From: Candidatus Woesearchaeota archaeon
GTDB lineage: Archaea; Nanobdellota; Nanobdellia; Woesearchaeales; UBA10216
Direction: 5' to 3'
Assembly: GCA_016184345.1 (NCBI GenBank)
Contig: JACPCV010000005.1
Location: 97,017-161,016, forward strand
Length of the DNA stretch: 64,000 bases
A model generated the notes under the pieces. That model saw only the letters and a program-made list of their open reading frames with translations, was not told the DNA's origin and made no database searches. The position numbers were made by a program, and so were the translations under genes. This document shows, one piece after another, positions 4,207 to 50,436 of the stretch; the first letter of the stretch is position 1, and each line of letters begins with the position of its first letter.

Positions 4207-5370
4207 ATGAAAAAAACACTCATTCGCAACAAAAGAGGAATTTTCTTCACGTCAATAGCCATACTAATCTCAGCGGTGCTCGTGCTTACATTTGGCACGC
4301 CGGCCAGCGTAACGACAAAGGAGCAAATCCCGCTGACACAGGCAAAAGCAGACATGGCAAATGCGCAGGCGCGCGACCTCAAATACAGCTACCTGCCCCA
4401 GTCACTTTACGTCTCAACCTACAGCGCCCTCTACGCCATGTCAGAGTACATGCGGCTAAGGGGCGGCTACTTCCAGGGAGCTGATGCCGACCAGAAATTC
4501 AACGCAACGCTGAAAGAGGTTATGATTAACGGCACCATATGCTGCGGCCTGGCAGGCCACCTTCCCCCATGCGATTCTGATTCCCTGGCTGACGTGAATA
4601 ACCCAGCCATCCATAAAGGGGCTGATGACTGCCTCGGCAAAGCCATAATGAAAGACAGGAACTTCACCAAGCGGCTTAAGGACATGGAAAACGCTTCCTT
4701 CACTGCCTTCAGGATAAACACGACGTTCAACAAGGACTATAATAACATGGTAATCCAGCTGTTCCAGGACAACCAGACCGGGCCCTGGCAAATCGGCGTT
4801 AACATAAGCGTGAACTACTCAATAACAGCCGGTGATGTCATGATAAACAACTCTGAAAACGTAAGCGTCATATTCGGCATAGAGGGAATACCAGACCCGC
4901 TGTACGCAGTGCAAAGCCAGCAAACGCCCCAGGACGGCAGTATTACGTACACCAACTACTTTAACGCCACGAACATTACAAACTGGAACATATCAGCGTT
5001 CTACCACGAGATAGAGTGGCGCCTCTACAGGCACGAGCCAAACGGCTCAAGCTTCCTCAACAGGTTCTACGGAAGGGATGAGCGCTCGCCATGCTGCGGC
5101 GTTGAGAGCCTGATAAACCCAGCGGACATGGGCACGGTCAACGGGGCATTGGAGAAGCCGTACGTTGACTGGTGCTACTACGGCAGAAACAACCGCTGCA
5201 CCACAGCCCAGACAGGAGCCATGTGGAACGTCACATGCGTCACGGCAGCCGTTGACGGCGAAAAGTTCTTCAAATACGCCATTGACACGTTCCACGCAAC
5301 GCAGTACAACATAACCAATTACCTATATGACCTGCCCCCATCGACATGCCCAGAGATACCTTTCCCGTGA
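4207..5370 (+). CDS. Large secreted/anchored pilus-cluster protein, Cys-rich, many N-glycosylation sequons
   Basis: N-terminus MKKTLIRNKRG|IFFTSIAILISAVLVLTF. More than 15 NxS/T sequons (for example NATNITNWNIS). Multiple Cys pairs. Confidence 0.65.
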   Translation: MKKTLIRNKRGIFFTSIAILISAVLVLTFGTPASVTTKEQIPLTQAKADMANAQARDLKYSYLPQSLYVSTYSALYAMSEYMRLRGGYFQGADADQKFNATLKEVMINGTICCGLAGHLPPCDSDSLADVNNPAIHKGADDCLGKAIMKDRNFTKRLKDMENASFTAFRINTTFNKDYNNMVIQLFQDNQTGPWQIGVNISVNYSITAGDVMINNSENVSVIFGIEGIPDPLYAVQSQQTPQDGSITYTNYFNATNITNWNISAFYHEIEWRLYRHEPNGSSFLNRFYGRDERSPCCGVESLINPADMGTVNGALEKPYVDWCYYGRNNRCTTAQTGAMWNVTCVTAAVDGEKFFKYAIDTFHATQYNITNYLYDLPPSTCPEIPFP

Positions 5371-5378
5371 CACTCTTT

Positions 5379-5476
5379 GGGAAAGAGGTTCAATCCAGAA
5401 AACGAAAGCTTTTTGATTAACCTTTCCCAAATCGTGCAAACGCACGATTGGGCCCAGTCGCTGGAGGCGACTTGGG
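5379..5476. repeat. Composite hairpin element (long hairpin plus twin bulged hairpins)
   Basis: Hairpin gggaaagaggttcaatc..gattaacctttccc (5379-5428). Twin hairpins cccaaatcg..cgattggg (5426-5452) and cccagtcgc..gcgacttggg (5453-5476). Same modules as the proS insert at 34257-34345. Confidence 0.85.
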
Positions 5477-5492
5477 TTCTTAAAAAGGTTAA

Positions 5493-6320
5493 ATGATAAA
5501 GAAAACATTCACAGTTGCAAAGAATACCGCGGCATTCTTCATTGCTGCAGTAAACGCGTTCAACCCGTTTGCTTACGGCGGCATCACGCAAAAGTCGCTG
5601 CAGGCAGTCATTATGCAGCTGCTTTACCTACTGCTGATTGTTACCCTGGCAATGGCTGCATTAACAATCCCTTCACTGGCATCGGTAGGAAGCAAAAGCC
5701 AGCTTCCCCTTGACAAGTTCTCAAATCTCACCTTGAAAGCGGAAATAGCCACGAAAGCACCAATTGAATCAGAACTCTTCTGGCTTGGCAACGCAAAGGT
5801 CCTTGTCAACACGACAGCAGATGCGGCAGCAACAGGCAAATATGACTTTGTGCTCACCAGCACTGAGCTAAGGAGCAGGCCGTTCCCCTGCCTCTTCAGG
5901 CAGGAGCTTTGCAGCATTCTGGGAATAAAGCACAAGGCAGTGCCAATCAAAGAGCTTGACCTTGCCCAGAGGGCACAAAAAAACAGGGCAGCGCTCCAGG
6001 CTTTCATCCTGCTGCTCCTGCCTGGCCTTATAATCCTGCTGTTCCTGTCAATGGTCGTCAAGTACGTCGCAGTTTCAGCAGCAGCTGCGCTCATAGGCTT
6101 TATTATCCTTAAGATAGCAAGGAAGGACACCGGCCTTTTTGACGCCCTTAAGATAGCATTTTACGCTGCAAACGCGCTTGTAATCCTGGACGCTGCGCTC
6201 TTCCTGCTCAGGCACACAGGCGCTGAAATACCAAGCTTCATTCCCCTGGCGGCGTACCTTGTCCTAATCATAGCCGCAGTCATGGCGAACGAGCAAAGGC
6301 TTTCCGACAGCATGATTTAA
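5493..6320 (+). CDS. Polytopic membrane protein of unknown function (end of pilin cluster)
   Basis: 275-aa ORF with several long hydrophobic segments. No recognisable motif. Confidence 0.55.
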   Translation: MIKKTFTVAKNTAAFFIAAVNAFNPFAYGGITQKSLQAVIMQLLYLLLIVTLAMAALTIPSLASVGSKSQLPLDKFSNLTLKAEIATKAPIESELFWLGNAKVLVNTTADAAATGKYDFVLTSTELRSRPFPCLFRQELCSILGIKHKAVPIKELDLAQRAQKNRAALQAFILLLLPGLIILLFLSMVVKYVAVSAAAALIGFIILKIARKDTGLFDALKIAFYAANALVILDAALFLLRHTGAEIPSFIPLAAYLVLIIAAVMANEQRLSDSMI

Positions 6321-6349: not shown

Positions 6350-7339
6350 ATGAAAGAGCGATTAGTGTGCCTTGGAATTGAAAGCACAGCCCACACTTTC
6401 GGGGTCGGCATCGCTACTACTGGTAAGACTGGCGGCCGTATCCTTGCCAACGTCATCAAGCAGTTCACAACCAGGAAAGGCGGCATAATACCTGCAGAGG
6501 CAGCAGAGCACCACGTTGACATCTGTGATGTTGCTATAACTGAGGCGTTAGCCGCAGCTGCAATTACGCTGAAAGACGTTGATATTGTTTCATTCTCTCA
6601 GGGACCGGGCATAGGCAACTGCCTTAGAGTTGGAGCGGCAGCAGCTCGCACACTGTCTCTTGCCCACAAAAAGCCCCTTGTTGGCGTTAACCACTGCATC
6701 TCACATCTTGAGATAGGCAAATTACTGACTGCAGCCAAAGACCCGGTGCTGCTGTACGTCTCAGGCGCAAACACGCAAGTCATTGCTTTTGAAACTGGGA
6801 AGTACCGCATCTTTGGGGAAACGCTTGACATTGGGGTTGGCAACATGCTTGACGTTTTTGCGAGGCACATCGGCATAGGATTCCCGGGAGGGCCGCGGAT
6901 TATGCGGCTTGCAACAGCCGGCAAGAGATACATAGAACTCCCTTACGTTGTAAAGGGGATGGACGTGAGCTTTGGCGGCATACTCACGAACATCAAGCGC
7001 AAATATGACAGCGGGGATTACAGAAAGGAAGACCTGTGCTACTCACTTCAGGAAACAGTCTTTGCAATGCTTGTTGAAACAGCCGAAAGGGCCCTTGCCC
7101 ACACCGGAAAAAGTGAGCTTCTCCTCGGCGGAGGGGTGGCATGCAACACCCGCCTTCAGGAAATGTGCAGGGCAATGTGCGAGGAAAGGGGAGCCAAGCT
7201 GTTTGTTCCGGAAAGGCAGTTCCTCGTTGACAACGGGGCAATGATTGCGTGGCTAGGCATCCTTGAATACCTCAAAGGCACAAGGACACAAGTTGAAAAG
7301 TCAGAGATACTGCCGTACTGGAGGACGGATGAGGCTTAA
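6350..7339 (+). CDS. kae1: tRNA N6-adenosine threonylcarbamoyltransferase Kae1
   Basis: CLGIESTAHTFGVGI, NHCISHLEIG (metal-binding His pair), LLLGGGVACN, VDNGAMIAW. It is stand-alone, with no Bud32 fusion. Confidence 0.9.
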   Translation: MKERLVCLGIESTAHTFGVGIATTGKTGGRILANVIKQFTTRKGGIIPAEAAEHHVDICDVAITEALAAAAITLKDVDIVSFSQGPGIGNCLRVGAAAARTLSLAHKKPLVGVNHCISHLEIGKLLTAAKDPVLLYVSGANTQVIAFETGKYRIFGETLDIGVGNMLDVFARHIGIGFPGGPRIMRLATAGKRYIELPYVVKGMDVSFGGILTNIKRKYDSGDYRKEDLCYSLQETVFAMLVETAERALAHTGKSELLLGGGVACNTRLQEMCRAMCEERGAKLFVPERQFLVDNGAMIAWLGILEYLKGTRTQVEKSEILPYWRTDEA

Positions 7340-8177: not shown

Positions 8178-8283
8178 TGTCCAGTGCAAATCGGTTACGC
8201 CGATTGCACACAGCATCGGCAACAGCCGATGCGTATAGGCGGCGTAACCGCCTATATTCCGCATCGCGGAATTGTGTCCAGTG
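8178..8283. repeat. Four-hairpin array flanked by 9-bp direct repeats TGTCCAGTG
   Basis: Direct repeats at 8178-8186 and 8275-8283. Hairpins at 8186-8207 (bulged), 8213-8232 (gcatcggc/gccgatgc), 8235-8255 (ataggcgg/ccgcctat) and 8256-8272 (attccgc/gcggaat). Confidence 0.85.
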
Positions 8284-10913: not shown

Positions 10914-10987
10914 CGCCCTCTCCGGGATTTGAACCCGGATTAAAAGCTCCGGAAGCTCTTGTCATGTCCGGATTAGACCAAGAGGGC
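10914..10987 (-). tRNA. tRNA-Arg (CCG), intron-less
   Basis: The reverse complement folds as GCCCTCT/AGAGGGC acceptor, anticodon arm AGAGC-TTCCGGA-GCTTT, and T-arm CCGGG-TTCAAAT-CCCGG. Discriminator G; no encoded CCA. Confidence 0.85.
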
Positions 10988-11115: not shown

Positions 11116-11248
11116 CGCCCCCACTGGGAATTGAACCCAGATCTCAGCCTGCCTGCTGACGGATACTCGCCGTCGTTTTTGGGTTGAACCTTTTTCGCAA
11201 AAAAGGGTCATTCGCGGGGCCGCATCTTGTCCGTTGGACCATAGGGGC
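11116..11248 (-). tRNA. tRNA-Arg (GCG, tentative) with a ~61-nt anticodon-loop intron
   Basis: Acceptor GCCCCTA/TGGGGGC. Anticodon stem CGGCC/GGCTG with loop CCGCGAA (C33 is atypical). Intron about 11150-11210, starting TGACCCTTTTTT. T-arm CTGGG-TTCAATT-CCCAG. Confidence 0.65.
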
Positions 11249-15625: not shown

Positions 15626-15715
15626 GGGTTGATAAGGCACAAGTCGTGCAAGCACGACTGTGCACAGTCGCCGCAAGGCGACTTGTGGCGGGAGCGAAGC
15701 GACTGCCCTTATTGC
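15626..15715. repeat. Long form of the palindromic element, with a twin-hairpin cassette nested in its loop
   Basis: The arms gggttgataagg (15626-15637) and cccttattgc (15706-15715) enclose cacaagtcg..cgactgtg and cacagtcg..cgacttgtg (15638-15687). It contains the stop codon of the 720-aa ORF. Confidence 0.85.
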
Positions 15716-17871
15716 TGTGGAAACTTCACAGTTGCCTTGCTAAGGCCCTTGAGCTCTTCAATCTTCTTCTCAATGTCATCTATTTCCTTATCAATGTTTT
15801 CAATGTCCTCATCACCATAACTGCCTGCTTCACCGGAATCATGCTCAACAGCTGCTGTTTCCTGCTGCGGAACGGCTTCCTCTTCGGCATCCGCAGTTTC
15901 AGGCAATGCGGCTCCTGTTCCTTCCGCTACTGCGGTTTCGGCACCTGCTGCGCCCTGCCTGCTATGCCAATCCAGCTCGCTGACAGGAACTTCCCTTGTC
16001 AGATGCAGAGGAGCCGGAAGCACATCCTTCTCAGGCTCGTACACTGGAGTAACATCAGAAGTGATTTTCTGGGCTGCTGTTGCAGGTGGCGGTTCGACCT
16101 GCTGCGCAATCGGGAGAAGCCCGATTTGCGCCTGCATGGCAGGGGCTTCTGACAGCAGTGCCTTGTAAAGGCGAAGCACTCTTTCCCTTACCCCTGACTT
16201 TTGCAGGGCAAAGCCCGGAGGCAGTGTGTTGTAAAGGGCCATAACACTTGAGTAGGCAGCATTGGCAGACTCAAAGTCTTTCCGCTTCACCTGGGCTTCG
16301 GCCTTGTCAAGAAGCTTCGTTATGTTTGAAATTGTTGAAGAGGAGCTGCTCGTTTCCACCTGCTTGGCTTTCTTCAGGTAAGCCTCGTAAGCCTGCACTA
16401 TCTGGTCCTGCAGCGTTGTTTCCTCGTGCAGGAAGCCCTTTGGCATTTTCAGGTAAAGCCGCTTGACCTTTTCGTACGCTGCCTCGGCTTCATCAAGCTC
16501 GCCCCTCGCAGTGTGAGAGTTCATGGCGCCAAGCAGTGTCGCGATTTCAGCAGACTTTGTCTTGAGCGTGCTGACCGATTCCTTTGTATAGATGGAGGTT
16601 ATTGCCGTGTGCAGCGGCACAATCTTCTCCTGCAAGGCAGCCTTCTCCTTGAGAAAACCTGCGGGAAGGCTGCTGTAAAGCTGCTTAACTTCCCTATATG
16701 CCTGGATTGCTGGCTCAATCTTGTAGTCCTTCAGCAGCTCCTGAATCTGGCTGATAAGCTCCCCCACCTGCCTGGCAGCCCTGTCAAACTTCTGCCTGAT
16801 GGCTTTCTCCCTTTCCCTCGCGAGGGTGCTGTAAAAAGCAAGCACCTTTTCCTGAATCTCTTTTTTTTCATCAATAAATCCAGGAGGCAGGGTTTCATAC
16901 TCGTGCTTGATAGCCTGGTAATACGATTCTGCAGTCTCAAACTCTCCCTTTCTCAGGAGCCTGTTGCCGGCATTCAGGAGCAGGGCTATCCTCTCCCCGG
17001 CCCTTTTGAGCTTTTCAAGGTTGGCCTGGTCAACGTTTTTGGCCAGGTCCTTGTTAAGCTTGACAAGGTCATCCTCCATCTGCCTCTTTTTCTCAATGAA
17101 CTCCTTTGCAAGGTTCTGGTGGGCAAACTTCAGCTTCTCGTAAAGGTCATTTGCTTCCTCAATCTTGCCTTCCTGCATGAGCTCGTACGCCTTCCCAAGC
17201 AGGTCCTTATAGTCCTTGGTCGCCTGGATGGACTGCAAAGTTGTAATCTGGTCGTAAAGCTTGTTCAGCTCTTCAATGGCAAGCCTTGCCTGCTCGTAAA
17301 GACGCGTGTAGGAAGAGCTGGCATAGTCAAACTTGCCTTCGCTGGCATGAGAAGCTGCCTCCTGCAGCTGTTCATCAAGCGACCTCATAAGCTCGTTAAG
17401 CCCGGCCTTTTTTTGCGGCACAATGTCAGCCTGGGTAACAAGCCTGTCATGCACTCCCTTAAGCTTTGAGAGCAGGTTGTAATAAGTTTGTTTCAGCAGG
17501 CCAAACTCGCCAGCTGTCTTTTCTTCACCGGCTTTTGACAGGATATCCCGCATGCTGCCAAGCTCAGTCTTCAGTTCAGAGAACTCAACGCCTTCGGCAG
17601 GCAAGCCTGATTCATGGCCGAGCTGCCTTGCCTTTGGGATTTCAGGGACAGCCACGTAAGGAGTGGTGAACTTGTACTTTACAATTACAAGGCCATCCTC
17701 TTCAAGAAAGTTTGCCCAGGCCTCAACCGTCTGCAAGCTGGCGCCAAGCTCCTTGGCAGCAGCTGCCATGGCTACCTCTTTAGACCTCCTTACAAGGTCA
17801 AGAAGCCTGTCAGCGCCTGTCTTTACCTCTTCAGGCATAGGCTCTTCTGATTCCTCAGCTTTTCCAACCAT
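15709..17871 (-). CDS. 720-aa repeat protein (~74-aa helical repeats with LPxGF motif), co-oriented with the pilus ATPase
   Basis: At least four clear repeats: Y.TLPPGFIDEKKEIQEKV, YSSLPAGFLKEKAALQEKI, YLKMPKGFLHEETTLQDQI, YNTLPPGFALQKSGVRERV. The N-terminus (LDLVRRSKEVAMAAAAKELGASLQTVEAWANFLEEDGLV) looks like a winged helix. The C-terminus is acidic. Confidence 0.7.
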   Translation of the reverse strand: MVGKAEESEEPMPEEVKTGADRLLDLVRRSKEVAMAAAAKELGASLQTVEAWANFLEEDGLVIVKYKFTTPYVAVPEIPKARQLGHESGLPAEGVEFSELKTELGSMRDILSKAGEEKTAGEFGLLKQTYYNLLSKLKGVHDRLVTQADIVPQKKAGLNELMRSLDEQLQEAASHASEGKFDYASSSYTRLYEQARLAIEELNKLYDQITTLQSIQATKDYKDLLGKAYELMQEGKIEEANDLYEKLKFAHQNLAKEFIEKKRQMEDDLVKLNKDLAKNVDQANLEKLKRAGERIALLLNAGNRLLRKGEFETAESYYQAIKHEYETLPPGFIDEKKEIQEKVLAFYSTLAREREKAIRQKFDRAARQVGELISQIQELLKDYKIEPAIQAYREVKQLYSSLPAGFLKEKAALQEKIVPLHTAITSIYTKESVSTLKTKSAEIATLLGAMNSHTARGELDEAEAAYEKVKRLYLKMPKGFLHEETTLQDQIVQAYEAYLKKAKQVETSSSSSTISNITKLLDKAEAQVKRKDFESANAAYSSVMALYNTLPPGFALQKSGVRERVLRLYKALLSEAPAMQAQIGLLPIAQQVEPPPATAAQKITSDVTPVYEPEKDVLPAPLHLTREVPVSELDWHSRQGAAGAETAVAEGTGAALPETADAEEEAVPQQETAAVEHDSGEAGSYGDEDIENIDKEIDDIEKKIEELKGLSKATVKFPQQ

Positions 17872-25131: not shown

Positions 25132-25256
25132 GACTTTGCAAACTTAACAGCTGTTATAAAAATTTATCTGTGTGACAGCTATTTCTTGCCAGCAAAAAGT
25201 ATATAAACCGTCCGTCAACGCTTTCTTGATTGACCTTCTTTTCTAAAGAAGGTCAT

Positions 25257-25449
25257 GCCCCGGTAGCTTAGACGCTGCCAACAGCGGAGCAACAGGTAGA
25301 GCGTGTGACACTTCGGTGGCAATCCATCGAGAGCTACGAAGCTGTTACTTGCTTAGCAGGGACCACAAATCCTTTAAAAGGAGTGGAGGGTCGCCAGTTC
25401 GAGACGCTTCTAAGCTAGTGCTTGAAGCGAAAAATTCTGGCCCGGGGCG
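25257..25449 (+). tRNA. tRNA (isotype unresolved) with insertions in the D-loop, anticodon region and T-loop
   Basis: Acceptor GCCCCGG/CCGGGGC. D-arm GCTT-AGAC[~21-nt insert 25274-25294]GGTA-GAGC. T-arm GCCAG-TTCGAGA[~32-nt insert]-CTGGC. About 70 extra nt lie in the anticodon region. I could not assign the anticodon by eye. Confidence 0.65.
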
Positions 25450-25464
25450 CTTATTATTATCATC

Positions 25465-25611
25465 GGGCCCATAGTTCAGCTTGGCTAGAACGCCGCACAA
25501 CCTTTTTCACAAAAAGGTTGATCAAAAACCTTGGAAAAGGTTGGGCGAGTCTGATATTCGGTTAGCGAATCAGTCAGGCGGAGGTCCTCGGTTCAAGTCC
25601 GAGTGGGCCCA
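25465..25611 (+). tRNA. tRNA-Ile (GAT, tentative) with two introns
   Basis: Acceptor GGGCCCA/TGGGCCC, D-arm GTTC..GAAC, T-arm CTCGG-TTCAAGT-CCGAG. The anticodon arm reconstructs as CCGC[53 nt, 25497-25549]T-CTGATA[19 nt, 25557-25575]A-GGCGG. Confidence 0.6.
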
Positions 25612-30480: not shown

Positions 30481-30497
30481 TGAATAAGCACCTTGAG

Positions 30498-30709
30498 CGA
30501 GCCCGCCGGGACTTCCTCACTGGCGTTCGGGGCATAAATCGCTGATGCGATTGTGCCCAGTCGGTTTTGCACCGACTTGGGCATTGCCGCCTCGGGCGCC
30601 AATATTTGAACCCAGATCAATCGGTTGCTTCTTCTTCGTTTTTGATTGGCCTTTTTCCTAAAAAGGTCATCCGAAGCCGATCGCACTGTCCGGATTGTGC
30701 TACAGGCCC
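30498..30709 (-). tRNA. tRNA-Arg (TCG) with a 45-nt anticodon-loop intron and a 93-nt T-loop insertion
   Basis: Acceptor GGGCCTG/CGGGCTC (two G-U pairs), D-arm GCAC..GTGC. Anticodon arm ATCGG-CTTCGGA[30625-30669]-CCGAT. T-arm CTGGG-TTCAAAT[30511-30603]CCCGG. Confidence 0.7.
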
Positions 30710-30778: not shown

Positions 30779-30920
30779 ATATAGACAACTTTGATTATCC
30801 CATAGTTATTTGTCAAAGTTGCCTCAGCGTATCGCTGAGGGATGTCAGCTATCAGCTGACATTGTCTTAGAGGACTTTGAACAAAAGTGATAAATAGGGG
30901 TTATTCAAAGTCCTCTATAT
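30779..30920. repeat. Double-hairpin repeat 'X', copy 2 (inverted), carrying a 40-nt twin-hairpin insertion with TTG duplication
   Basis: Reverse complement of 11369-11469. The extra segment at 30822-30864 is cctcagcg-tat-cgctgagg ga tgtcagct-atc-agctgaca, flanked by ttg at 30819-30821 and 30862-30864. Confidence 0.9.
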
Positions 30921-32829: not shown

Positions 32830-32859
32830 CGCCCCACAGCTGATTTGAATGCGATAACT

Positions 32860-34407
32860 ATGTCTGATGGCAAAAACAAAAAGGCCGCTGCAGCAGCCGA
32901 AGACAAAAAGACAATCGGGCTTACCGTAAAGAAATCCGAGGACTTCTCAGAGTGGTACACACAGGTAATCGCCAAGGCAGAGCTTGCAGACTACACGAAA
33001 GTGTCAGGATGCCTGGTGCTCAGGCCTTACGCATACGCAATCTGGGAAAAGATAGTCAAAGAGGTTGATGCAAGGCTCAAGAAGATGAGGGTGCAGAACT
33101 GCTACTTCCCGCTGCTCATACCCGAGAGCCTGCTCAAGAAGGAGGAGCAGCACATCCAGGGATTCGCGCCCGAAGTTGCCTGGGTAACCCATGCAAGCGA
33201 CACCAAGCTTGATGAGCGGCTCGCAGTAAGGCCTACTTCCGAGACAATAATGTACGATTCTGTCTCAAAATGGGTAAGGAGCTGGAGGGATTTGCCTCTC
33301 AAGCTTAACCAGTGGAACAACGTTGTACGGTGGGAGTTCAAGCACCCCACGCCCTTCATAAGGACAAGAGAATTCCTCTGGAACGAAGGACACACTGCCT
33401 TTGCCACAAAAGAAGAGGCAGAGGCCGAGATAGGGGAGATACTGTCGCTATGGAAGGATATCACTGAAAATTTCCTTGCAGTTGCCGGAATTACAGGGCA
33501 AAAAAGCCAGTCCGAGAAGTTTGCCGGCGCAGTTGCCAGCTACAGCATAGAATTCTTCCTCCCAAACGGCAGGGCAGCGCAGGGGCCTGACGCACACTTT
33601 GACGGCCAGAACTTTGCCAAGGCGTTTGACATCACATTCCTGAACGAGAAAGGCGAAAAGGATTATGTCTGGCAGAACACGTGGGCAATAACCACAAGGA
33701 TGATTGGCATACTGGCAATGGTGCACGGCGACGACAAAGGCTTGGTTATCCCGCCAAACATAGCGCCTGTACAAATAGTTATTGTCCCGATATTGTTTGA
33801 AGACTCCAAAAAGGAAGTCCTGGCAGCTGCAAACAAGATAAGAAAAGAGCTGGAGAAAGAAAGCATAGCTGCCGAAGTTGACGGCCGCGAGACTTACACT
33901 GCCGGCTGGAAGTTCAACGAGTGGGAGCTTAAGGGCGTCCCAGTCAGGATAGAAATTGGACCTAGAGACATGCAGCAGAAGCAGGCCATCATCGTAAGGA
34001 GAGACACATCAGCGAAGGAAACCGTCAAGCTGGAAGCTGTTGCAGCTGCCGCAAGGAAAACGCTTGCCGAAATCCAGGAGTCACTCTACCAAAAGTCAAA
34101 GCAGCAGCTTGAAAACAGCATTGTGGCTGCCAAAAACATTGGTGAAATCGCCACTGCAGTGAAAAGCAAGAAGCTCGCAAAAGCAGATTTCTGCGGCTCA
34201 GCAAAGTGCGAGGCAGAAGTCAAGGAAAAAGCGGACGGAGCAACCTCAAGGTGCATGACCCTTTTAGAACCCAAATCGACAGAAGCCGATTGGGCCCAGT
34301 CGTCGCAACGACTTGGGAAAGGGTCAATCCAAAAACGCGAACAAATGGGCAAATGCGTTGTGTGCGGAAAAGAAGGAGTTGCGAGCTGGTTTGGGAAGGC
34401 GTACTGA
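32860..34407 (+). CDS. proS: Prolyl-tRNA synthetase, archaeal type, with an in-frame repeat-derived insertion near the C-terminus
   Basis: FSEWYTQVI, RPTSETIMY, WNNVVRWE (class II motifs), and the C-terminal ..CVVCGKEG..WFGKAY end. Extra residues TLLEPKSTEADWAQSSQRLGKGS.. are encoded by the element at 34257-34325. Confidence 0.9.
   Translation: MSDGKNKKAAAAAEDKKTIGLTVKKSEDFSEWYTQVIAKAELADYTKVSGCLVLRPYAYAIWEKIVKEVDARLKKMRVQNCYFPLLIPESLLKKEEQHIQGFAPEVAWVTHASDTKLDERLAVRPTSETIMYDSVSKWVRSWRDLPLKLNQWNNVVRWEFKHPTPFIRTREFLWNEGHTAFATKEEAEAEIGEILSLWKDITENFLAVAGITGQKSQSEKFAGAVASYSIEFFLPNGRAAQGPDAHFDGQNFAKAFDITFLNEKGEKDYVWQNTWAITTRMIGILAMVHGDDKGLVIPPNIAPVQIVIVPILFEDSKKEVLAAANKIRKELEKESIAAEVDGRETYTAGWKFNEWELKGVPVRIEIGPRDMQQKQAIIVRRDTSAKETVKLEAVAAAARKTLAEIQESLYQKSKQQLENSIVAAKNIGEIATAVKSKKLAKADFCGSAKCEAEVKEKADGATSRCMTLLEPKSTEADWAQSSQRLGKGSIQKREQMGKCVVCGKEGVASWFGKAY
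34257..34345 (+). repeat. Structured element inside proS: 8-bp outer stem enclosing twin bulged hairpins, followed by an AATCCAAAAACG tail
   Basis: gacccttt (34257-34264) pairs with aaagggtc (34318-34325). Inner hairpins are cccaaatcg/cgattggg and cccagtcg/cgacttggg. The core is 69 nt, or 23 codons. Related to tRNA intron modules and to 5379-5476. Confidence 0.85.
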
Positions 34408-39198: not shown

Positions 39199-39600
39199 TT
39201 AAATGTTTCGCAGCAATTCCGCAGCTGTGACTATTTTTGCGCTTCTGAACTTTTTAAGCACTAGCAGGTCTTTATCGCCAGATATTATGTAATCAGCATT
39301 ACCCTCTAAAGCTGCCTCTAACAGCTTATTATCATCAGGGTCTCTGCATACGCTTCTTACCTTCTCTTTTGGCATAACAACCTCAGCTGCTTCGATAAGC
39401 GCGTTTACGAAGTCGTTAACCTCTTCCTCACTAAAGCCGAACTTAGGCCTTAAAGCTACCTCTTTGAATTCGTCAAGAACATCTACGGAAGTGATAATAA
39501 TAATTTCTCTCACAAAACATTTCTCAATCAGCCGGTACTCGTTCCCTTCCACTATAAGAGCAGAAATTAGGACGTTTGTGTCAGGAACTACCCGCAGCAT
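39199..39600 (-). CDS. vapC: PIN-domain toxin (VapC-like)
   Basis: MLRVVPDTNVLISALI...IISGDKDLL. Confidence 0.8.
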   Translation of the reverse strand: MLRVVPDTNVLISALIVEGNEYRLIEKCFVREIIIITSVDVLDEFKEVALRPKFGFSEEEVNDFVNALIEAAEVVMPKEKVRSVCRDPDDNKLLEAALEGNADYIISGDKDLLVLKKFRSAKIVTAAELLRNI

Positions 39601-39859
39601 GCCTTGCCTTCCTCACAGCCTTAATCTCCCTTGCAATGTCTTCCCTAGTTATGCCGCGCTCCTTGAAGCGCTTTGTAGCCTCGGCTGCTAATTCGCGAAA
39701 AACCTCAATCGGCTCTCTTTTCTTTCTTATCAAGATTGTGTCGTCTGAGTAAAAGAAGTCAAGAACTTGCCCCTCTTCCAGTTCCAGGGCCTCTCTTATG
39801 GAGGCGGGTAGCGTTATCTGACCTTGCCTTGTTATCTTATAAGTTCCTGCGGTCTTCAT
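39581..39859 (-). CDS. vapB: AbrB/SpoVT-type antitoxin (VapB-like)
   Basis: YKITRQGQITLPASIREALELEEGQVLDF. Overlaps vapC by 20 nt. tatttaaa lies 24 nt upstream. Confidence 0.75.
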   Translation of the reverse strand: MKTAGTYKITRQGQITLPASIREALELEEGQVLDFFYSDDTILIRKKREPIEVFRELAAEATKRFKERGITREDIAREIKAVRKARHAAGSS

Positions 39860-40053
39860 AATAGTATTTGTAGTAGAGATAGTATTTAAACTTTTCTGTT
39901 TTATTGCGCCATTGAAAAGTTGCCGTTGTTCGGCCAGCTTGACACTACCCGTTGCAGCTGTTCGGCAGCAGTGCAGCCTCCTTAGCGACCAAAAGCTTTA
40001 TATTCTTACATTTCTTACAAATAAGAAGAATAGACGATACGGAGGTGGTTGAG

Positions 40054-40302
40054 ATGGAGCTGCTTGAGATGAAGAGTGCCAAGATAACAAAGAAAGGGCA
40101 GATTGCCATTCCCAAAAGTGTAAGAAAGCTTGAAGGATTTAGTGAAGGCTCAAAGGTGGCAATTCTTGCGTTTAAGGACAGAGTTGAACTGAAGCCTATG
40201 AAGCAAATCAGCAGAATCGCGCTTACAGCCCTGGCAAGCGAAAAAACGCTTGCGAAAGACTGGGATACTAAAGAGGAAGATGACGCATGGAAAAACTTGT
40301 GA
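40054..40302 (+). CDS. mazE: AbrB/MazE-type antitoxin
   Basis: ggaggtg RBS at 40041-40047. KITKKGQIAIPKSVRKLEGFSEGSKVAI. Confidence 0.7.
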   Translation: MELLEMKSAKITKKGQIAIPKSVRKLEGFSEGSKVAILAFKDRVELKPMKQISRIALTALASEKTLAKDWDTKEEDDAWKNL

Positions 40303-40619
40303 AGGGAGACATAGTCGTTGTGCCGTTTCCTTTTTCCGACCTGAGCGCTTCAAAGAAAAGACCTGCACTTGTGATTGCATCTTTAACAGGAAATGACCTC
40401 ATTCTCTGCCAGATAACAAGCAAAGCAAAATTTGACGGCTATTCGATAAGCCTTGCCGGTGCAGATTTTGAAAAAGGAGGGCTGAATGTGCCAAGCAGGA
40501 TAAGGCCGAATCGGTTGTTTACAGCTGACAACTCAATAATCCTGTACAAAGCAGGCTCACTTCGGCAGGGGAAAATCAATGAGGTTGAAGAAGCACTGGT
40601 CAGGATAATCCGGGGTTAA
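40287..40619 (+). CDS. mazF: MazF/PemK-family toxin
   Basis: GDIVVVPFPFSDLSASKKRPALVI...RPNRLFT. Confidence 0.85.
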   Translation: MEKLVKGDIVVVPFPFSDLSASKKRPALVIASLTGNDLILCQITSKAKFDGYSISLAGADFEKGGLNVPSRIRPNRLFTADNSIILYKAGSLRQGKINEVEEALVRIIRG

Positions 40620-41449
40620 TGAGGTTAGGTATGCGCTTCATTACTGCAACTGATGTTAAGCTGAAAAAGAGGAAGCCTGACAGCCACAAAGGCGAGAACG
40701 GCCGCGTTTTGGTCGTTGCAGGCTCAATTGACTACGTTGGCGCTGCTTACCTGGCAGGGATGGCTGCTTTCCGGTCTGGTGTTGACGCTGTTGTCGTTGC
40801 AGCCCCTGAGAAGGTTGCGTGGGCAATCAACTGCCTTTCCCCTGATTTCATAACGAAGAAGTTCAGGGGCGATTTCTTCACAGCTGCGACAGCGAAGGAA
40901 ATAGTTGAGATGAGCAAAAAGTTTGACGTCACATTAATTGGCAACGGCGTAGGGAAAAGTATTGAAACGCTAAAATTTGCTGCAGCCGTATGCAGGAAAA
41001 TAGAAAGCACTAAAGTGATTGATGCCGATGCCATCTCCGCAGTGAGAATGCAGGAAGTGCAAAACGCCATATTCACGCCGCACCATGCAGAATATGACCT
41101 GCTGCTGAGAAATAGCCACTGTAGTGAAAAGCGACTGCAAACGGTTATTGGCACGAATGTCATACTGCTCAAAGGCAGGATAGATGCGATAATTGCAAAG
41201 GGAAAAACAGCTTACAACAGGACAGGAAACGCCGGCATGACGGTCGGGGGAACTGGCGACGTACTTGCAGGGCTTACTGCAGGCATTTTGGCGCAGGAAA
41301 AGGACCTGTTCAAGGCAGCAGCTGCGGCGGCTTACGTTAACGGGAAAGCAGGAGACCTGCTGCTGAGGGAATATGGCTATGGGTTCACTGCCAGTGATTT
41401 GCTCCAGGAACTGCCTGCTGTGCTGAAGCAGCTGTGGGGCATCGAATAA
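40619..41449 (+). CDS. nnrD: ADP-dependent NAD(P)H-hydrate dehydratase (YjeF C-terminal type)
   Basis: HKGENGRVLVVAGS..YVGAAYLA, TPHHAEY, GGTGDVLAGL. Confidence 0.85.
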   Translation: MRLGMRFITATDVKLKKRKPDSHKGENGRVLVVAGSIDYVGAAYLAGMAAFRSGVDAVVVAAPEKVAWAINCLSPDFITKKFRGDFFTAATAKEIVEMSKKFDVTLIGNGVGKSIETLKFAAAVCRKIESTKVIDADAISAVRMQEVQNAIFTPHHAEYDLLLRNSHCSEKRLQTVIGTNVILLKGRIDAIIAKGKTAYNRTGNAGMTVGGTGDVLAGLTAGILAQEKDLFKAAAAAAYVNGKAGDLLLREYGYGFTASDLLQELPAVLKQLWGIE

Positions 41450-41508
41450 GCACAATTTTACTTAAAATTTTAGTAAAATTTATAAATACTAAGGTTCTTA
41501 GTAATGTT

Positions 41509-41757
41509 ATGAGTGAAACGACTGTCGTAACACGGGGAAGTCAGATAACCCTGACAAAAGCCATAAGGGAAAAAACCGGCATAAGGGAGGGAGATACGGT
41601 TACACTAAACGTGGCTGGGGGAAATGTAATCGTTGCCAAAAGGGACCCGTCTGTGTTTGACAATCTTAAAAGATTCCTGCCTGATAATTTTGAAGAAATC
41701 CTAAAAAAGACGCGAACAGACGACAGGAAACGGTTAAAGAGGCTTGGCATTATTTAA
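41509..41757 (+). CDS. vapB: AbrB/SpoVT-type antitoxin (VapB-like)
   Basis: VVTRGSQITLTKAIREKTGIREGDTVTL. tttataaata lies about 25 nt upstream. Confidence 0.7.
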   Translation: MSETTVVTRGSQITLTKAIREKTGIREGDTVTLNVAGGNVIVAKRDPSVFDNLKRFLPDNFEEILKKTRTDDRKRLKRLGII

Positions 41758-41760
41758 ACA

Positions 41761-41913
41761 ACAGAATTCCACTCATCTATGATGAGTGGGGTTCTGTGTG
41801 CTCAAAAACCACCGGTTCGTGGAATTCTGAGCGTCAAAACAGCATCGGCAGCAGCCGATGCGTATCGACCCGAGGTCGATAAATGCCACCGGTCTCTGAC
41901 CGGTGGTTTTTGA
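41761..41913. repeat. Multi-hairpin element inserted between vapB and vapC
   Basis: Hairpins at 41769-41789, 41842-41861 (gcatcggc/gccgatgc, as at 8213-8232), 41863-41881 and 41887-41907. A 14-bp long-range stem pairs 41804-41817 with 41900-41913. Confidence 0.85.
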
Positions 41914-41926
41914 CAGGCGATAATTC

Positions 41927-42355
41927 ATGAAGATACTCTTTGACACCAGCGCACTGATAGAGCTGGAAAGGCAAAATCAGGAAGCTATTGTGCTTGTCAA
42001 AGGCTTAATCACAGGCAAAGAAGAAATTGTGATAAGCACCGTAACTATTTCTGAAGTATTGTTAGGCGTTTATTTCCAGAAAGCTTATGAAAAAATTGTA
42101 GAGGCCAAAAAGCTCCTATCCCAGTTTAAATGGATACCTTTGGATGAAAACATAGCCGATATGGCGGCCCAGTATGAGGCGTTGCTGCTGAACATTGGGA
42201 ACGAAATTGAATTCAAGGATGTTGCAATAGCCGCAACCTTTGCAGCCACGAAATCAGATTTTTTAATTACACAAAACAAGAGGCATTTTCAAATTTTGCC
42301 AGATATTGGAAACAGTGCCAAAACGATTGCAGAATTTAGCAAAATTTATCGGTAA
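41927..42355 (+). CDS. vapC: PIN-domain toxin (VapC-like)
   Basis: MKILFDTSALIELER...DVAIAATF...LITQNKRHF. Confidence 0.8.
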   Translation: MKILFDTSALIELERQNQEAIVLVKGLITGKEEIVISTVTISEVLLGVYFQKAYEKIVEAKKLLSQFKWIPLDENIADMAAQYEALLLNIGNEIEFKDVAIAATFAATKSDFLITQNKRHFQILPDIGNSAKTIAEFSKIYR

Positions 42356-44012: not shown

Positions 44013-44684
44013 ATGGTTACTGTTGACGAGCTCAAGAAGCTAAGCCCTGAAGAAAGAATCAAGCGGCTGAAAGAGCTTGAGGAGGAGCGCAAGAAGGAGA
44101 TAGCAGAAGCGGAAGAGCTAATCAAGGAAACAGCAAAGGAGCTTGCCGAAGCCGAGGAAAAAAGGAGGATACCGATTCCAGAGGCAAGGGCAACCGACCT
44201 GTCCACGCTTGACACGCTTGAGGAAAAACAGCTCGTCGCAACACACCACCTCCTTGCAGCGGAAACAACAGCAACCCACCAGCCGCAAAGCCCGCAGCAG
44301 CCAAAAAGCCTGGAGGAAGTCGCAGCAGAGGAAGCGCCTGCAGCAGGCCAACAAACGCAGCATGACCTTTTAGGAAAAGGTCAATCAAAATTACAAAAGC
44401 CCGAATACGCCATAGGCACGGAGCAACAGAGGCCAGCGTTCGGGGAATACCTTTCAAAATCGCAGCAGACAGTAACAGGAGGAACTCCCCCGGGCAGCAG
44501 CGAGCTGGAAAAGATTACGGAAATTTACAAGGACAGGGCAGTAACCGGAGCCGAGACAGGAGATGCCCAGCAAAAATACTTTGGCACGCAACAGCACGTA
44601 ACCGGAGGATATGAGCTGAGGAAAAGAGAGGAAGAGGACAGAAGGGAAAGAACAGAGTACAGAAGAAGGGGAGGGCCTGCTTAA
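44013..44684 (+). CDS. Uncharacterised 223-aa coiled-coil/low-complexity protein (operon gene 2)
   Basis: The N-terminus ELKKLSPEERIKRLKELEEERKKEIAEAEELIKE is coiled-coil, followed by a Q/T/E-rich tail. Its stop abuts the ATG of gene 3. Confidence 0.55.
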   Translation: MVTVDELKKLSPEERIKRLKELEEERKKEIAEAEELIKETAKELAEAEEKRRIPIPEARATDLSTLDTLEEKQLVATHHLLAAETTATHQPQSPQQPKSLEEVAAEEAPAAGQQTQHDLLGKGQSKLQKPEYAIGTEQQRPAFGEYLSKSQQTVTGGTPPGSSELEKITEIYKDRAVTGAETGDAQQKYFGTQQHVTGGYELRKREEEDRRERTEYRRRGGPA

Positions 44685-50266: not shown

Positions 50267-50314
50267 TGCTGCTGCAGTAGTTGGTTATATAAATATTTAC
50301 GCAGAAAAAATGAG

Positions 50315-50436
50315 CGGGCCCACAGGGACTTTCAAGCCTTTTTGGTTGAGCTTTTTGTGCGCTCACAAAAAGGTCATTTGAACCCTGGACCTGTTCGTTA
50401 AGAGCGAACCGCTCTACCAGGCTAAGCTATGGGCCC
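50315..50436 (-). tRNA. tRNA-Lys (CTT) with a 48-nt insertion in the T-loop
   Basis: GGGCCCA-TA-GCTT..GAGC-G-GTTCG-CTCTTAA-CGAAC-AGGTC-CAGGG-TTCAAAT[50328-50375]CCCTG-TGGGCCC-G. Confidence 0.8.

Follow-up and report, generated by a model that had tools for sequence, protein, structure and literature searches.

Small selfish palindromes, among them the repetitive extragenic palindromes (REPs), their inverted doublets (REPINs) and the Rickettsia palindromic elements (RPEs), are thought of as bacterial, and the DPANN archaea are known for a reduced, host-dependent lifestyle. At the ends of IS200/IS605 insertion sequences such as IS608, the transposase TnpA recognises imperfect hairpins of single-stranded DNA that carry an extrahelical base by a conserved core, and these sequences insert without target duplication and with a sequence preference on one flank. 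The inverted terminal repeats (ITRs) of parvoviruses, including adeno-associated virus (AAV), are T-shaped terminal hairpins bound and nicked by an HUH Rep protein. Here we analyzed a stretch of 64,000 nucleotides (hereafter the window) from a Candidatus Woesearchaeota archaeon (assembly GCA_016184345.1, contig JACPCV010000005.1, positions 97,017 to 161,016 of the forward strand), which carries four cassettes made of two adjacent bulged hairpins each, the focal one at 15638-15687. Three further described systems come close to them. It has been written of REPINs that each of them differs from every other in its spacer, the variable part being constrained only to keep the hairpin (PMC3337134). 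RPEs are palindromic insertions lying in frame within genes, with no mobilising gene known (PMC10969869). Transposing tRNA introns with bulge-helix-bulge motifs occur in Thermoproteales, where near-identical introns are found in different tRNAs at the canonical position and at 59/60, by a mechanism that is unknown (Fujishima et al. 2010; PMC4090602). We consider, with a probability of roughly 0.7, that the cassettes are selfish palindromic repeats of DNA, non-autonomous and limited to a small groundwater clade of Woesearchaeota; our verdict is that of a REPIN/RPE-like selfish repeat in a variant new to archaea. A literature search found no published description of the element in DPANN archaea. 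The statement of a first-pass annotation of the window, that no archaeal equivalent has been described, thus holds for this architecture only, since archaeal miniature inverted-repeat transposable elements, or MITEs, are known (PMC10969869).

The window contains four doublets of 48-51 nt, or roughly one per 16 kb, and two single units (Table 1). The cassettes have the form NNN-AARTCG-loop-CGAYT-NNN' followed by NNN-ARTCG-loop-CGAYTT-NNN', with a spacing of exactly six bases from CGAYT to ARTCG across the cassette. In all four we observed the bulges pointed out by the first-pass annotation, an additional A in hairpin 1 (5' arm) and an additional T in hairpin 2 (3' arm); the coordinates it gave stand for three copies, whereas copy 3 starts at 30533 and not at 30532. 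The reverse complement of a cassette has the same architecture, so that the cassette consists of two inverted copies, without spacer, of one unit U (NNN-A[A]RTCG-x..y-CGAY-T-NNN'), and both DNA strands therefore read an A-bulged hairpin and then a T-bulged hairpin. About 24-27 nt long, the replicating unit is an imperfect palindrome in which a proximal stem of 3 bp, a single extrahelical A and the conserved core ARTCG/CGAYT are joined to a freely varying distal stem and loop. Across the family the doublet is the usual form, singlets occur too, and cassette length ranges over 47-52 nt. The predicted fold of a doublet is two adjacent hairpins, with long-range pairing of the outer arms A/A' as a possible alternative. 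This pairing is perfect in copy 2, in which A/A' and B'/B can be read directly from the sequence as exact complements, as had been claimed. Predicted three-way junctions, in which an outer stem is added to the doublet, are stable, with z-scores of -3.4 to -5.1 against shuffles.

The cassette pattern matched four times in the window and not once in any of 100 dinucleotide-preserving shuffles. A covariance model built from 60 copies found elsewhere, and run on the window with filters off, recovered the four cassettes on both strands (E 9e-14 to 5e-10), added, at 8185-8233 and 16102-16130, two units that are single or partial (E about 1e-4 to 1e-3) and gave nothing else of a convincing kind; a weak match at 5118-5174 was on inspection not a copy. 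The sole Rfam 15 match in the window at the gathering score was a tRNA (10914-10987), with no RNA family at the cassettes, and ARAGORN reported nothing there. Copy 1 is intergenic, between the open reading frames (ORFs) 4207-5370 and 5493-6320.

We then turned to the distribution of the family, using L-numbers as labels of the loci fetched from the genome and metagenome scans. A scan of the GTDB species genomes by a loose form of the cassette pattern returned at least 115 stretches, not all of them true copies; the true copies came from at least nine Woesearchaeota-type metagenome-assembled genomes (MAGs), with per-genome counts that are lower bounds. Seven of these MAGs are labelled Woesearchaeota (nzgw63 and NC_groundwater_268, 269, 270, 435, 437 and 725). 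With a stricter pattern, 48 stretches were retrieved from 241 million metagenome records, several of them of groundwater origin (Hainich), and a scan of viral contigs gave no match, so that there is no sign of a viral vector. The combined total is at least 122 twin loci, in which 115 twin sequences and 175 hairpin units are distinct, and the element is therefore not limited to a few copies, as the first-pass annotation had allowed it might be. One of the single units of the window (8184-8209) is also present in L012. The proteins closest to the prolyl-tRNA synthetase (ProRS) of the window carry the names Candidatus Woesearchaeota or Nanoarchaeota. Among the matches listed, the family is restricted to a small clade of groundwater Woesearchaeota.

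Two cassette-bearing MAGs are labelled "uncultured Methanosarcinales archaeon", CAZBFZ01 (L006, L010, L039, L043, L051, L078) and CAYUOQ01 (L005, L108). The former has Woesearchaeota-like genes, including in L051 a T2SSE ATPase with 92% protein identity to that of the window, and both labels look wrong. The bacterial matches of the genome scan are other repeats or chance. Among them, loci of Chloroflexota/Anaerolineae MAGs (L027, L028, L079, L087, L090, L092, L094, L100) share an unrelated repeat, GCAAAGTCGGCCTTCGCCGACT-N6-AGTCGGCGAAGGCCGACTTTGC, which one Chloroflexota MAG (BJ8) has at numerous loci and which is also present in relatives; it is probably a REP-like element of its own.

Whether the bulges and the pairing hold across copies was seen in the fetched loci. 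Among hairpins of the Woesearchaeota-type loci with an RTCG...CGAY core and at least four further pairs, 272 are bulged and one is perfect, so the bulge pattern persists as more copies are added. The order of the doublet, 5'-arm bulge (A) and then 3'-arm bulge (T), was the same in 70 of 70 cases in the genome-scan loci, and never reversed. Compensatory change in the stems, another feature noticed at first pass, was borne out both by pair counts and by an alignment of 60 sequences. The first distal pair occurs as AT (57), CG (53), TA (31) and GC (30) and is Watson-Crick in 98% of units, against 27% with partners shuffled; for the second distal pair the values are 89% and 39%. One proximal pair (CG 127, AT 34, GC 8) is Watson-Crick in 97% and the R-Y pair (GC 126, AT 48) in 99%. 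Within the alignment, 99.4% of the stem cells are paired, compared to 88.3% after shuffling, and double changes fill 118 cells compared to 32; controls with partners slid by 1-3 columns gave 25-45% pairing. Where pairs are better sampled, only 0-2% are G.U; for the third distal pair, present in just 57 units, the share is 7%. The near-absence of G.U suggests that the pairing is needed in DNA or on both strands, and not in one RNA. In addition, a set of loop modules (GCAGCAGC, ACAGCGGT, TCGCAA, CTGTTG, GCGCAAGC, AGCTTTGCT and TGCAAAGCA) recurs in varied combinations, and two copies resembling copy 1 (L008:3983 and L104:6562) have hairpin 2 in common with a wholly different distal hairpin 1, which suggests that hairpin modules are exchanged or recombined between copies.

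Comparison of orthologous loci, which the first-pass annotation had proposed, revealed presence or absence of the cassettes at three sites. The ORF 32845-34407 encodes a ProRS of the eukaryote/archaeal type with 22 extra residues (LEPKSTEADWAQSSQRLGKGSI in the alignment), absent from the homologues P0002-P0021 (68-82% identical); at the DNA level the insertion, twin plus host element, is 66 nt net relative to L001 and L002. In the ProRS of L119 (65% identical), the same site holds a short hairpin element only (ATGGCCCCTTTAGAA/AAAGGGCCAATCCAAAAACGC), and relative to it the window has the exact 48-nt twin added between GAA and AAA, with no target duplication. The orthologous tRNA-Arg of L001, L002/L003, L042 and L119 is free of the T-loop insertion in which copy 3 lies, and a homologous twin-bearing insertion is found at the same position (59/60) of a different tRNA in L159. 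Finally, the spacer of copy 2 contains no twin in L051, where it holds a 36-nt element between the same neighbours (T2SSE ATPase, 92%, and the 720-aa gene, 72% protein identity to the window). Over a larger scale, the syntenic 16-21 kb of L001 and L002 have no cassette, compared to two in the same stretch of the window. By these sequence comparisons, the cassettes are insertions that are polymorphic between relatives.

Many insertions fall in protein-coding genes, and for 14 copies the frame is open over 60 or more codons on each side. In addition to ProRS, the hosts include an aspartyl-tRNA synthetase (AspRS; L106), in which the insert falls in a gap relative to PDB 6WOM, PurL (L080), in which host element and twin make 84 nt in frame, and a GT4 glycosyltransferase (L025) with an in-frame copy and a host confirmed by Pfam; the ORFs with copies in L064 and L044 look like a CCA-adding enzyme and a DnaG-like primase, named by eye from their translations. 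All three frames of the cassette are in use (PKS..DWAQS..RLG, TQV..GPSR..TWG and NPNR..), the commonest reading being PKSxxxDWAQSxQRLG. Counts of cassette length modulo three in ORFs (12/14 vs 29/53) were judged partly circular and are given little weight. The single unit at 16104-16131 matches extra residues in the 720-aa protein relative to L051, in a variable linker where the boundaries are ambiguous. A scan for bulge-helix-bulge motifs found none at the boundaries of the coding copies, while the tRNA positive controls were found, and the residues of ProRS beyond the insert align with the homologues only when the insert is read through. From both observations we infer that the coding copies are translated and not spliced. 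A twin cassette also lies in frame in L053 (2027-3958), within a 644-codon ORF with a LAGLIDADG-like motif (LLGYFISEGT); given this motif the frame may hold an intein, and the cassette would then be an element inside an element.

Many twins are nested in a base element of 36 nt, CATGACC(C)-T(3-6)-loop-A(3-6)-(G)GGTCAATC(C)AAAAACG, or more shortly CATGACC-T(n)-loop-A(n)-GGTCAATCAAAAACG. Copy 2 lies in a host hairpin of a second type, of which there is a homologous twin-bearing copy at L076:419 and a twin-less version in L119 (about 7210-7300). A strict search yielded 42 base elements, at least ten of them in tRNA genes as removable sense-strand segments and four deep in ORFs. Base elements form the cores of tRNA introns, lie in frame within proteins and also occupy spacers. 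In the window, the element at 44362-44392 lies in ORF 44013-44684, reads HDLLGKGQSK and is conserved in L002, that at 50337-50377 lies in the T-loop intron of tRNA-Lys(CUU), and that at 30637-30670 in the canonical intron of tRNA-Arg. Since base elements occur in L001, L002 and L119, with no twin in the DNA examined there, they are more widespread than the twins and probably older. The twins favour the A-run side of T-run/A-run host hairpins, and exactly one flank is A-rich in 87 of 115 copies. The outer stem that makes three-way junctions of copies 1, 3 and 4 is supplied by the host element. We discarded this stem as a defining feature of the family, as at least six consecutive flanking pairs were present in only 26% of copies; the partner-shuffle control is uninformative here because the flanks themselves are homologous.

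Table 1. Coordinates of cassettes, single units, host elements and tRNA genes in the window (E, expectation value of the covariance model).
Feature	Position	Strand	Length	Description
Twin copy 1	5426-5476		51 nt	CCCAAATCG-TGCAAACGCA-CGATTGGG, then CCCAGTCG-CTGGAGG-CGACTTGGG; E 7e-13
Twin copy 2 (focal)	15638-15687		50 nt	CAC/GTG in all four arms; E 9e-14
Twin copy 3	30533-30581		49 nt	hairpin 1 CAT/GTG, one T.G pair on the plus strand; E 1e-10
Twin copy 4	34270-34317	+	48 nt	16 codons, in frame in ProRS ORF 32845-34407; reads PKSTEADWAQSSQRLG
Single bulged unit	8184-8209	+		extra A in 5' arm; GTGCAAATCGG-TTAC-GCCGATTGCAC
Single bulged unit	16104-16131	-		inside ORF 15709-17871; reads AQIGLLPIAQ
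Host base element of copy 1	5408-5492	-		TTAACCTTTTTAAGAA-twin-AAAGGTTAATCAAAAAGC; outer stem of three-way junction
Host hairpin of copy 2, second type	15631-15713	+		GATAAGG-twin-GCGGGAGCGAAGCGACTGCCCTTATT (GATAAGG...CCCTTAT)
T-loop insertion carrying copy 3	30512-30604	-	93 nt	position 59/60 of tRNA-Arg(UCG)
Host base element of copy 4	34255-34337	+		ATGACCCTTTTAGAA-twin-AAAGGGTCAATCCAAAAACG; in ProRS
tRNA-Arg(UCG) gene	30497-30709	-		45-nt canonical intron (30626-30670) and 93-nt T-loop insertion
tRNA-Lys(CUU) gene	50314-50436	-		48-nt intron at 59/60 (50329-50376); missed by standard scan
Twin-less base element	25497-25530	+
Twin-less base element	44362-44392	+
Twin-less base element	50337-50377	-
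Twin-less base element	30637-30670	-
Twin-less base element	11174-11211	-
Twin-less base element	25220-25257	-

The tRNA-Arg(UCG) gene of the window is missed in its raw sequence by ARAGORN and Rfam. With both inserted segments removed, ARAGORN calls a tRNA-Arg(tcg) of 75 nt. Its canonical intron has a clean bulge-helix-bulge (CTTC GG/A ... GAAG CA/A), as does the T-loop intron of tRNA-Lys (TTCA AA/T ... TGAA AG/T), and the 93-nt insertion has a relaxed one only (3 bp and an A.A mismatch in the central helix), the same in L159. In MAG nzgw63 (L042, 3693-3870), the canonical intron of tRNA-Arg(UCG) contains two tandem base-type hairpin elements, which indicates that such elements accumulate inside introns. 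Two other tRNAs of the window were missed by the standard scan, one at 25465-25611 (+) with seemingly at least one non-canonical intron and one at 11116-11248 (-) with a long intron.

A mobilising enzyme was sought in several ways. Pfam searches of 60 proteins of the window and of 10 ORFs flanked by cassettes or recurring near them, together with an NCBIfam search of 6 unannotated ORFs, detected no HUH/Y1 protein, integrase or reverse transcriptase. A low-power tblastn search of about 1.1 Mb with TnpA/RAYT queries gave a single spurious match, in L108, which lies inside a 607-aa surface protein and is no transposase. All-versus-all clustering of the ORFs near cassettes returned nothing but housekeeping genes in synteny and one 200-aa family, which cassette-free relatives have as well. 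Mobilisation by an HUH/Y1 enzyme, either a REP-associated tyrosine transposase (RAYT) or an IS200/IS605 transposase, had been suggested at first pass and thus gains no gene from the 60 window proteins, the 10 cassette-linked ORFs or the low-power tblastn search. As neither an HUH/Y1 gene nor another transposase was found, membership of the REP/RAYT system is unproven, and the link to RAYT or IS200 is to be taken as an analogy and not as a finding.

A selfish repeat of this kind would be copied at the DNA level, and the form in which the element is recognised would be that of a folded single strand or else of an extruded cruciform. The recognising factor would be a trans-acting enzyme specific for both structure and sequence, for which an HUH/Y1 transposase offers the best analogy; the bulge and the ARTCG core would be the features recognised, and the distal stem would need only to pair. 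Insertion would take place without target duplication and preferentially into existing hairpins of T-run/A-run type, on their A-run side, the 36-nt element being the foremost target. Copies in genes would survive only if in frame, would then be translated as 16-17 extra residues, and frame-breaking copies would be removed by selection. Copies in tRNA introns would be harmless because the intron is spliced out.

Several points weigh against a selfish, transposing repeat. No mobilising gene was found, and the case for transposition comes from the polymorphism between related sequences. The absence of target duplication is drawn from one clean pair of filled and empty sites, in ProRS genes whose products are only 65% identical. 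The pattern used to fetch most loci itself demanded bulges, so that the unbiased sample of hairpins consists of the extra, unselected ones only. With 115 distinct sequences at 122 loci, a slow or old spread, or gene conversion, fits better than recent bursts. The doublet is pseudo-symmetric, and the orientation data may therefore be compatible with strand-specific RNA roles. A host function may also be layered on top of the element, by analogy with some REPs.

Among the other explanations, we regard it as unlikely that the cassettes are functional RNA motifs, i.e., protein-binding hairpins, mRNA stabilisers or processing signals, or terminators that the host keeps in its transcripts. The stability of the predicted three-way junctions and the strong covariation of the stems would be expected of such motifs, several copies do lie in spacers between genes of the same direction, and bacterial REPs have acquired roles of this type (PMC3337134). 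However, copies stand in frame within ProRS, AspRS, PurL and other genes, the orthologous sites of close relatives differ in their presence or absence, G.U pairs are almost lacking, the element reads the same on both strands and no Rfam family matches it. The covariation likewise bears on a reading as duplex DNA binding sites, in which four half-sites CCCA(A)RTCG would serve a dimer or tetramer (a nucleoid protein, a regulator or a recombinase) and no hairpin would form. The four arms are indeed forms of a single 8-9-mer and make up two inverted repeats about a palindromic centre of 16 bp, and those of copy 2 all change together from CCC to CAC. A duplex site, however, needs no self-complementarity between the parts enclosed by its half-sites, which is where the 89-98% covariation with all four Watson-Crick types is found, and the coding and tRNA-intron copies and the presence/absence differences fit the spread of an element rather than regulation; we hold this reading for quite improbable. 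Chance palindromes or assembly artefacts, for which nothing speaks other than the small copy number in one window, are a negligible explanation in view of the shuffles, which gave no match against four real sites, of E-values down to 1e-13, and of the recurrence of the element in independent assemblies and metagenomes.

A further reading takes the cassettes, alone or with their host element, for bulge-helix-bulge introns cut from tRNAs and mRNAs by the tRNA splicing endonuclease. Copy 3 does lie within an insertion at 59/60, a known non-canonical intron position (PMC4090602), the 36-nt element is the core of the canonical tRNA-Arg and the T-loop tRNA-Lys introns, both with clean motifs, and at least 10 of the 42 host elements of the strict search are removable segments of tRNA genes. 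In contrast, the twin itself has 1-nt bulges and not the geometry of a bulge-helix-bulge (two 3-nt bulges and a 4-bp helix), and the boundaries of the coding copies showed no motif with a scan that detected its positive controls. The insertions in ProRS (24, 48 and 66 nt) and PurL (84 nt) are stop-free multiples of three, which splicing would not require, and the alignment of ProRS after the insert needs the insert to be read through. We therefore rate this reading as very unlikely, if a shade less so than the duplex binding sites. A bolder proposal keeps the mobility at the DNA level and attaches it to the introns: twin cassette and 36-nt host hairpin would both be mobile palindromes that create and move archaeal tRNA introns. 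We put it forward tentatively and think it rather doubtful. It draws on the 36-nt element being the core of canonical and T-loop introns while also lying in frame in proteins, on the 93-nt twin-bearing insertion at 59/60 of two different tRNAs, and on two lineages having the host element at one ProRS site that is without it in homologues closer to the window (68-82%). If true, these genomes show the "transposition" of bulge-helix-bulge introns at work, driven by an enzyme that is maybe not an HUH transposase.

Set beside the known systems, the selfish repeat proposed here shares with REPs and REPINs a short imperfect palindrome whose inverted doublet is the usual form, many copies per genome, singlets beside doublets, a variable part that need only pair, and a vertical, lineage-restricted inheritance. 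In contrast to REPINs, the units abut without a spacer and fold as two hairpins instead of one long hairpin, the variable part is the distal stem of each unit, many copies lie in frame within genes, the host organisms are archaea, and no RAYT/Y1 gene was found in the proteins searched. The likeness to REPs and bacterial interspersed mosaic elements proposed at first pass thus stands for the paired bulged imperfect palindromes, the compensatory stems, the presence/absence differences and the census, but not for an extragenic location. With RPEs the element has in common in-frame palindromic insertions in unrelated housekeeping genes, read as an extra peptide, in small genomes. RPEs are, however, of about 100-150 bp and encode one conserved peptide, and the cassette, at 48-51 nt (84 nt with the host element), is about three times shorter, uses all three frames, sits in tRNA introns too, is archaeal and has no sequence relationship to them. 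The extrahelical base by a conserved core, the lack of target duplication (one case here) and the preference on one flank are reminiscent of IS200/IS605 ends, whereas the hairpins of the cassette abut with no ORF between them and no transposase ORF was found near. As with the Thermoproteales introns, the host element and the 93-nt insertion recur at canonical and 59/60 positions; the same sequences are here found outside tRNAs as well, in proteins and spacers, and the twin is cargo of the intron and not its splice motif. The resemblance to AAV ITRs is one of shape only, an outer stem with two small hairpins (A-B-B'-C-C'-A') in copies 1, 3 and 4 and in the repeat at 30822-30862, with neither replicon nor Rep gene. 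Two other candidates were rejected. A classical MITE would agree with the 9-nt inverted outer arms A/A', but there is no duplication (one pair) and no related insertion sequence was found. Integron attC sites also have extrahelical bases, but the consensus contains no GTTRRRY/RYYYAAC core and the window no integrase.

If the cassettes are such a repeat, they provide a clear counterpart of REP/REPIN/RPE in archaea, in the ultrasmall DPANN, and one that both tRNA genes and essential genes (PurL and two aminoacyl-tRNA synthetases) tolerate. There are direct consequences for annotation, with a tRNA-Arg gene invisible to standard tools and proteins with 16-28 extra residues, and the element has a bearing on protein evolution in reduced genomes. 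It also bears on the gain and movement of archaeal tRNA introns, as one sequence family, that of the host element, takes in introns, intergenic repeats and insertions in coding sequence. With its single-base bulge, invariant and next to a conserved core, the hairpin would offer a recognition signature usable to find the mobilising enzyme.

The unbulged twin hairpins reported at first pass are real pairs, at 8211-8256, 41840-41881 and 30822-30862, but they belong to two other repeat families and are not related forms of the bulged one. A second twin family comprises the copies at 8211-8256 and 41840-41881 (CAGCATCGGC-loop-GCCGATGCG, then a second hairpin) and is also present in L031, L053, L132 and L143. 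L150 and L140 hold the empty site GTCAAAAT/CATGCC, so that the copy of this family at 41840-41881 represents about 42 nt of inserted sequence. A third twin repeat, at 30812-30870, reads CCTCAGCG-TAT-CGCTGAGG and then GATGTCAGCT-ATC-AGCTGACAT, with an outer stem enclosing both hairpins, and is found at 90-100% identity in L126, L031, L147, L097 and L093; the architecture of two hairpins in a stem thus recurs in unrelated sequence families of these genomes. The region 39199-42355 contains a cluster of toxin-antitoxin genes (PIN, MazE, PemK/MazF, PIN) and, interspersed among them, a gene for an NAD(P)HX dehydratase, and a hairpin repeat of the second family lies between two genes of this cluster.

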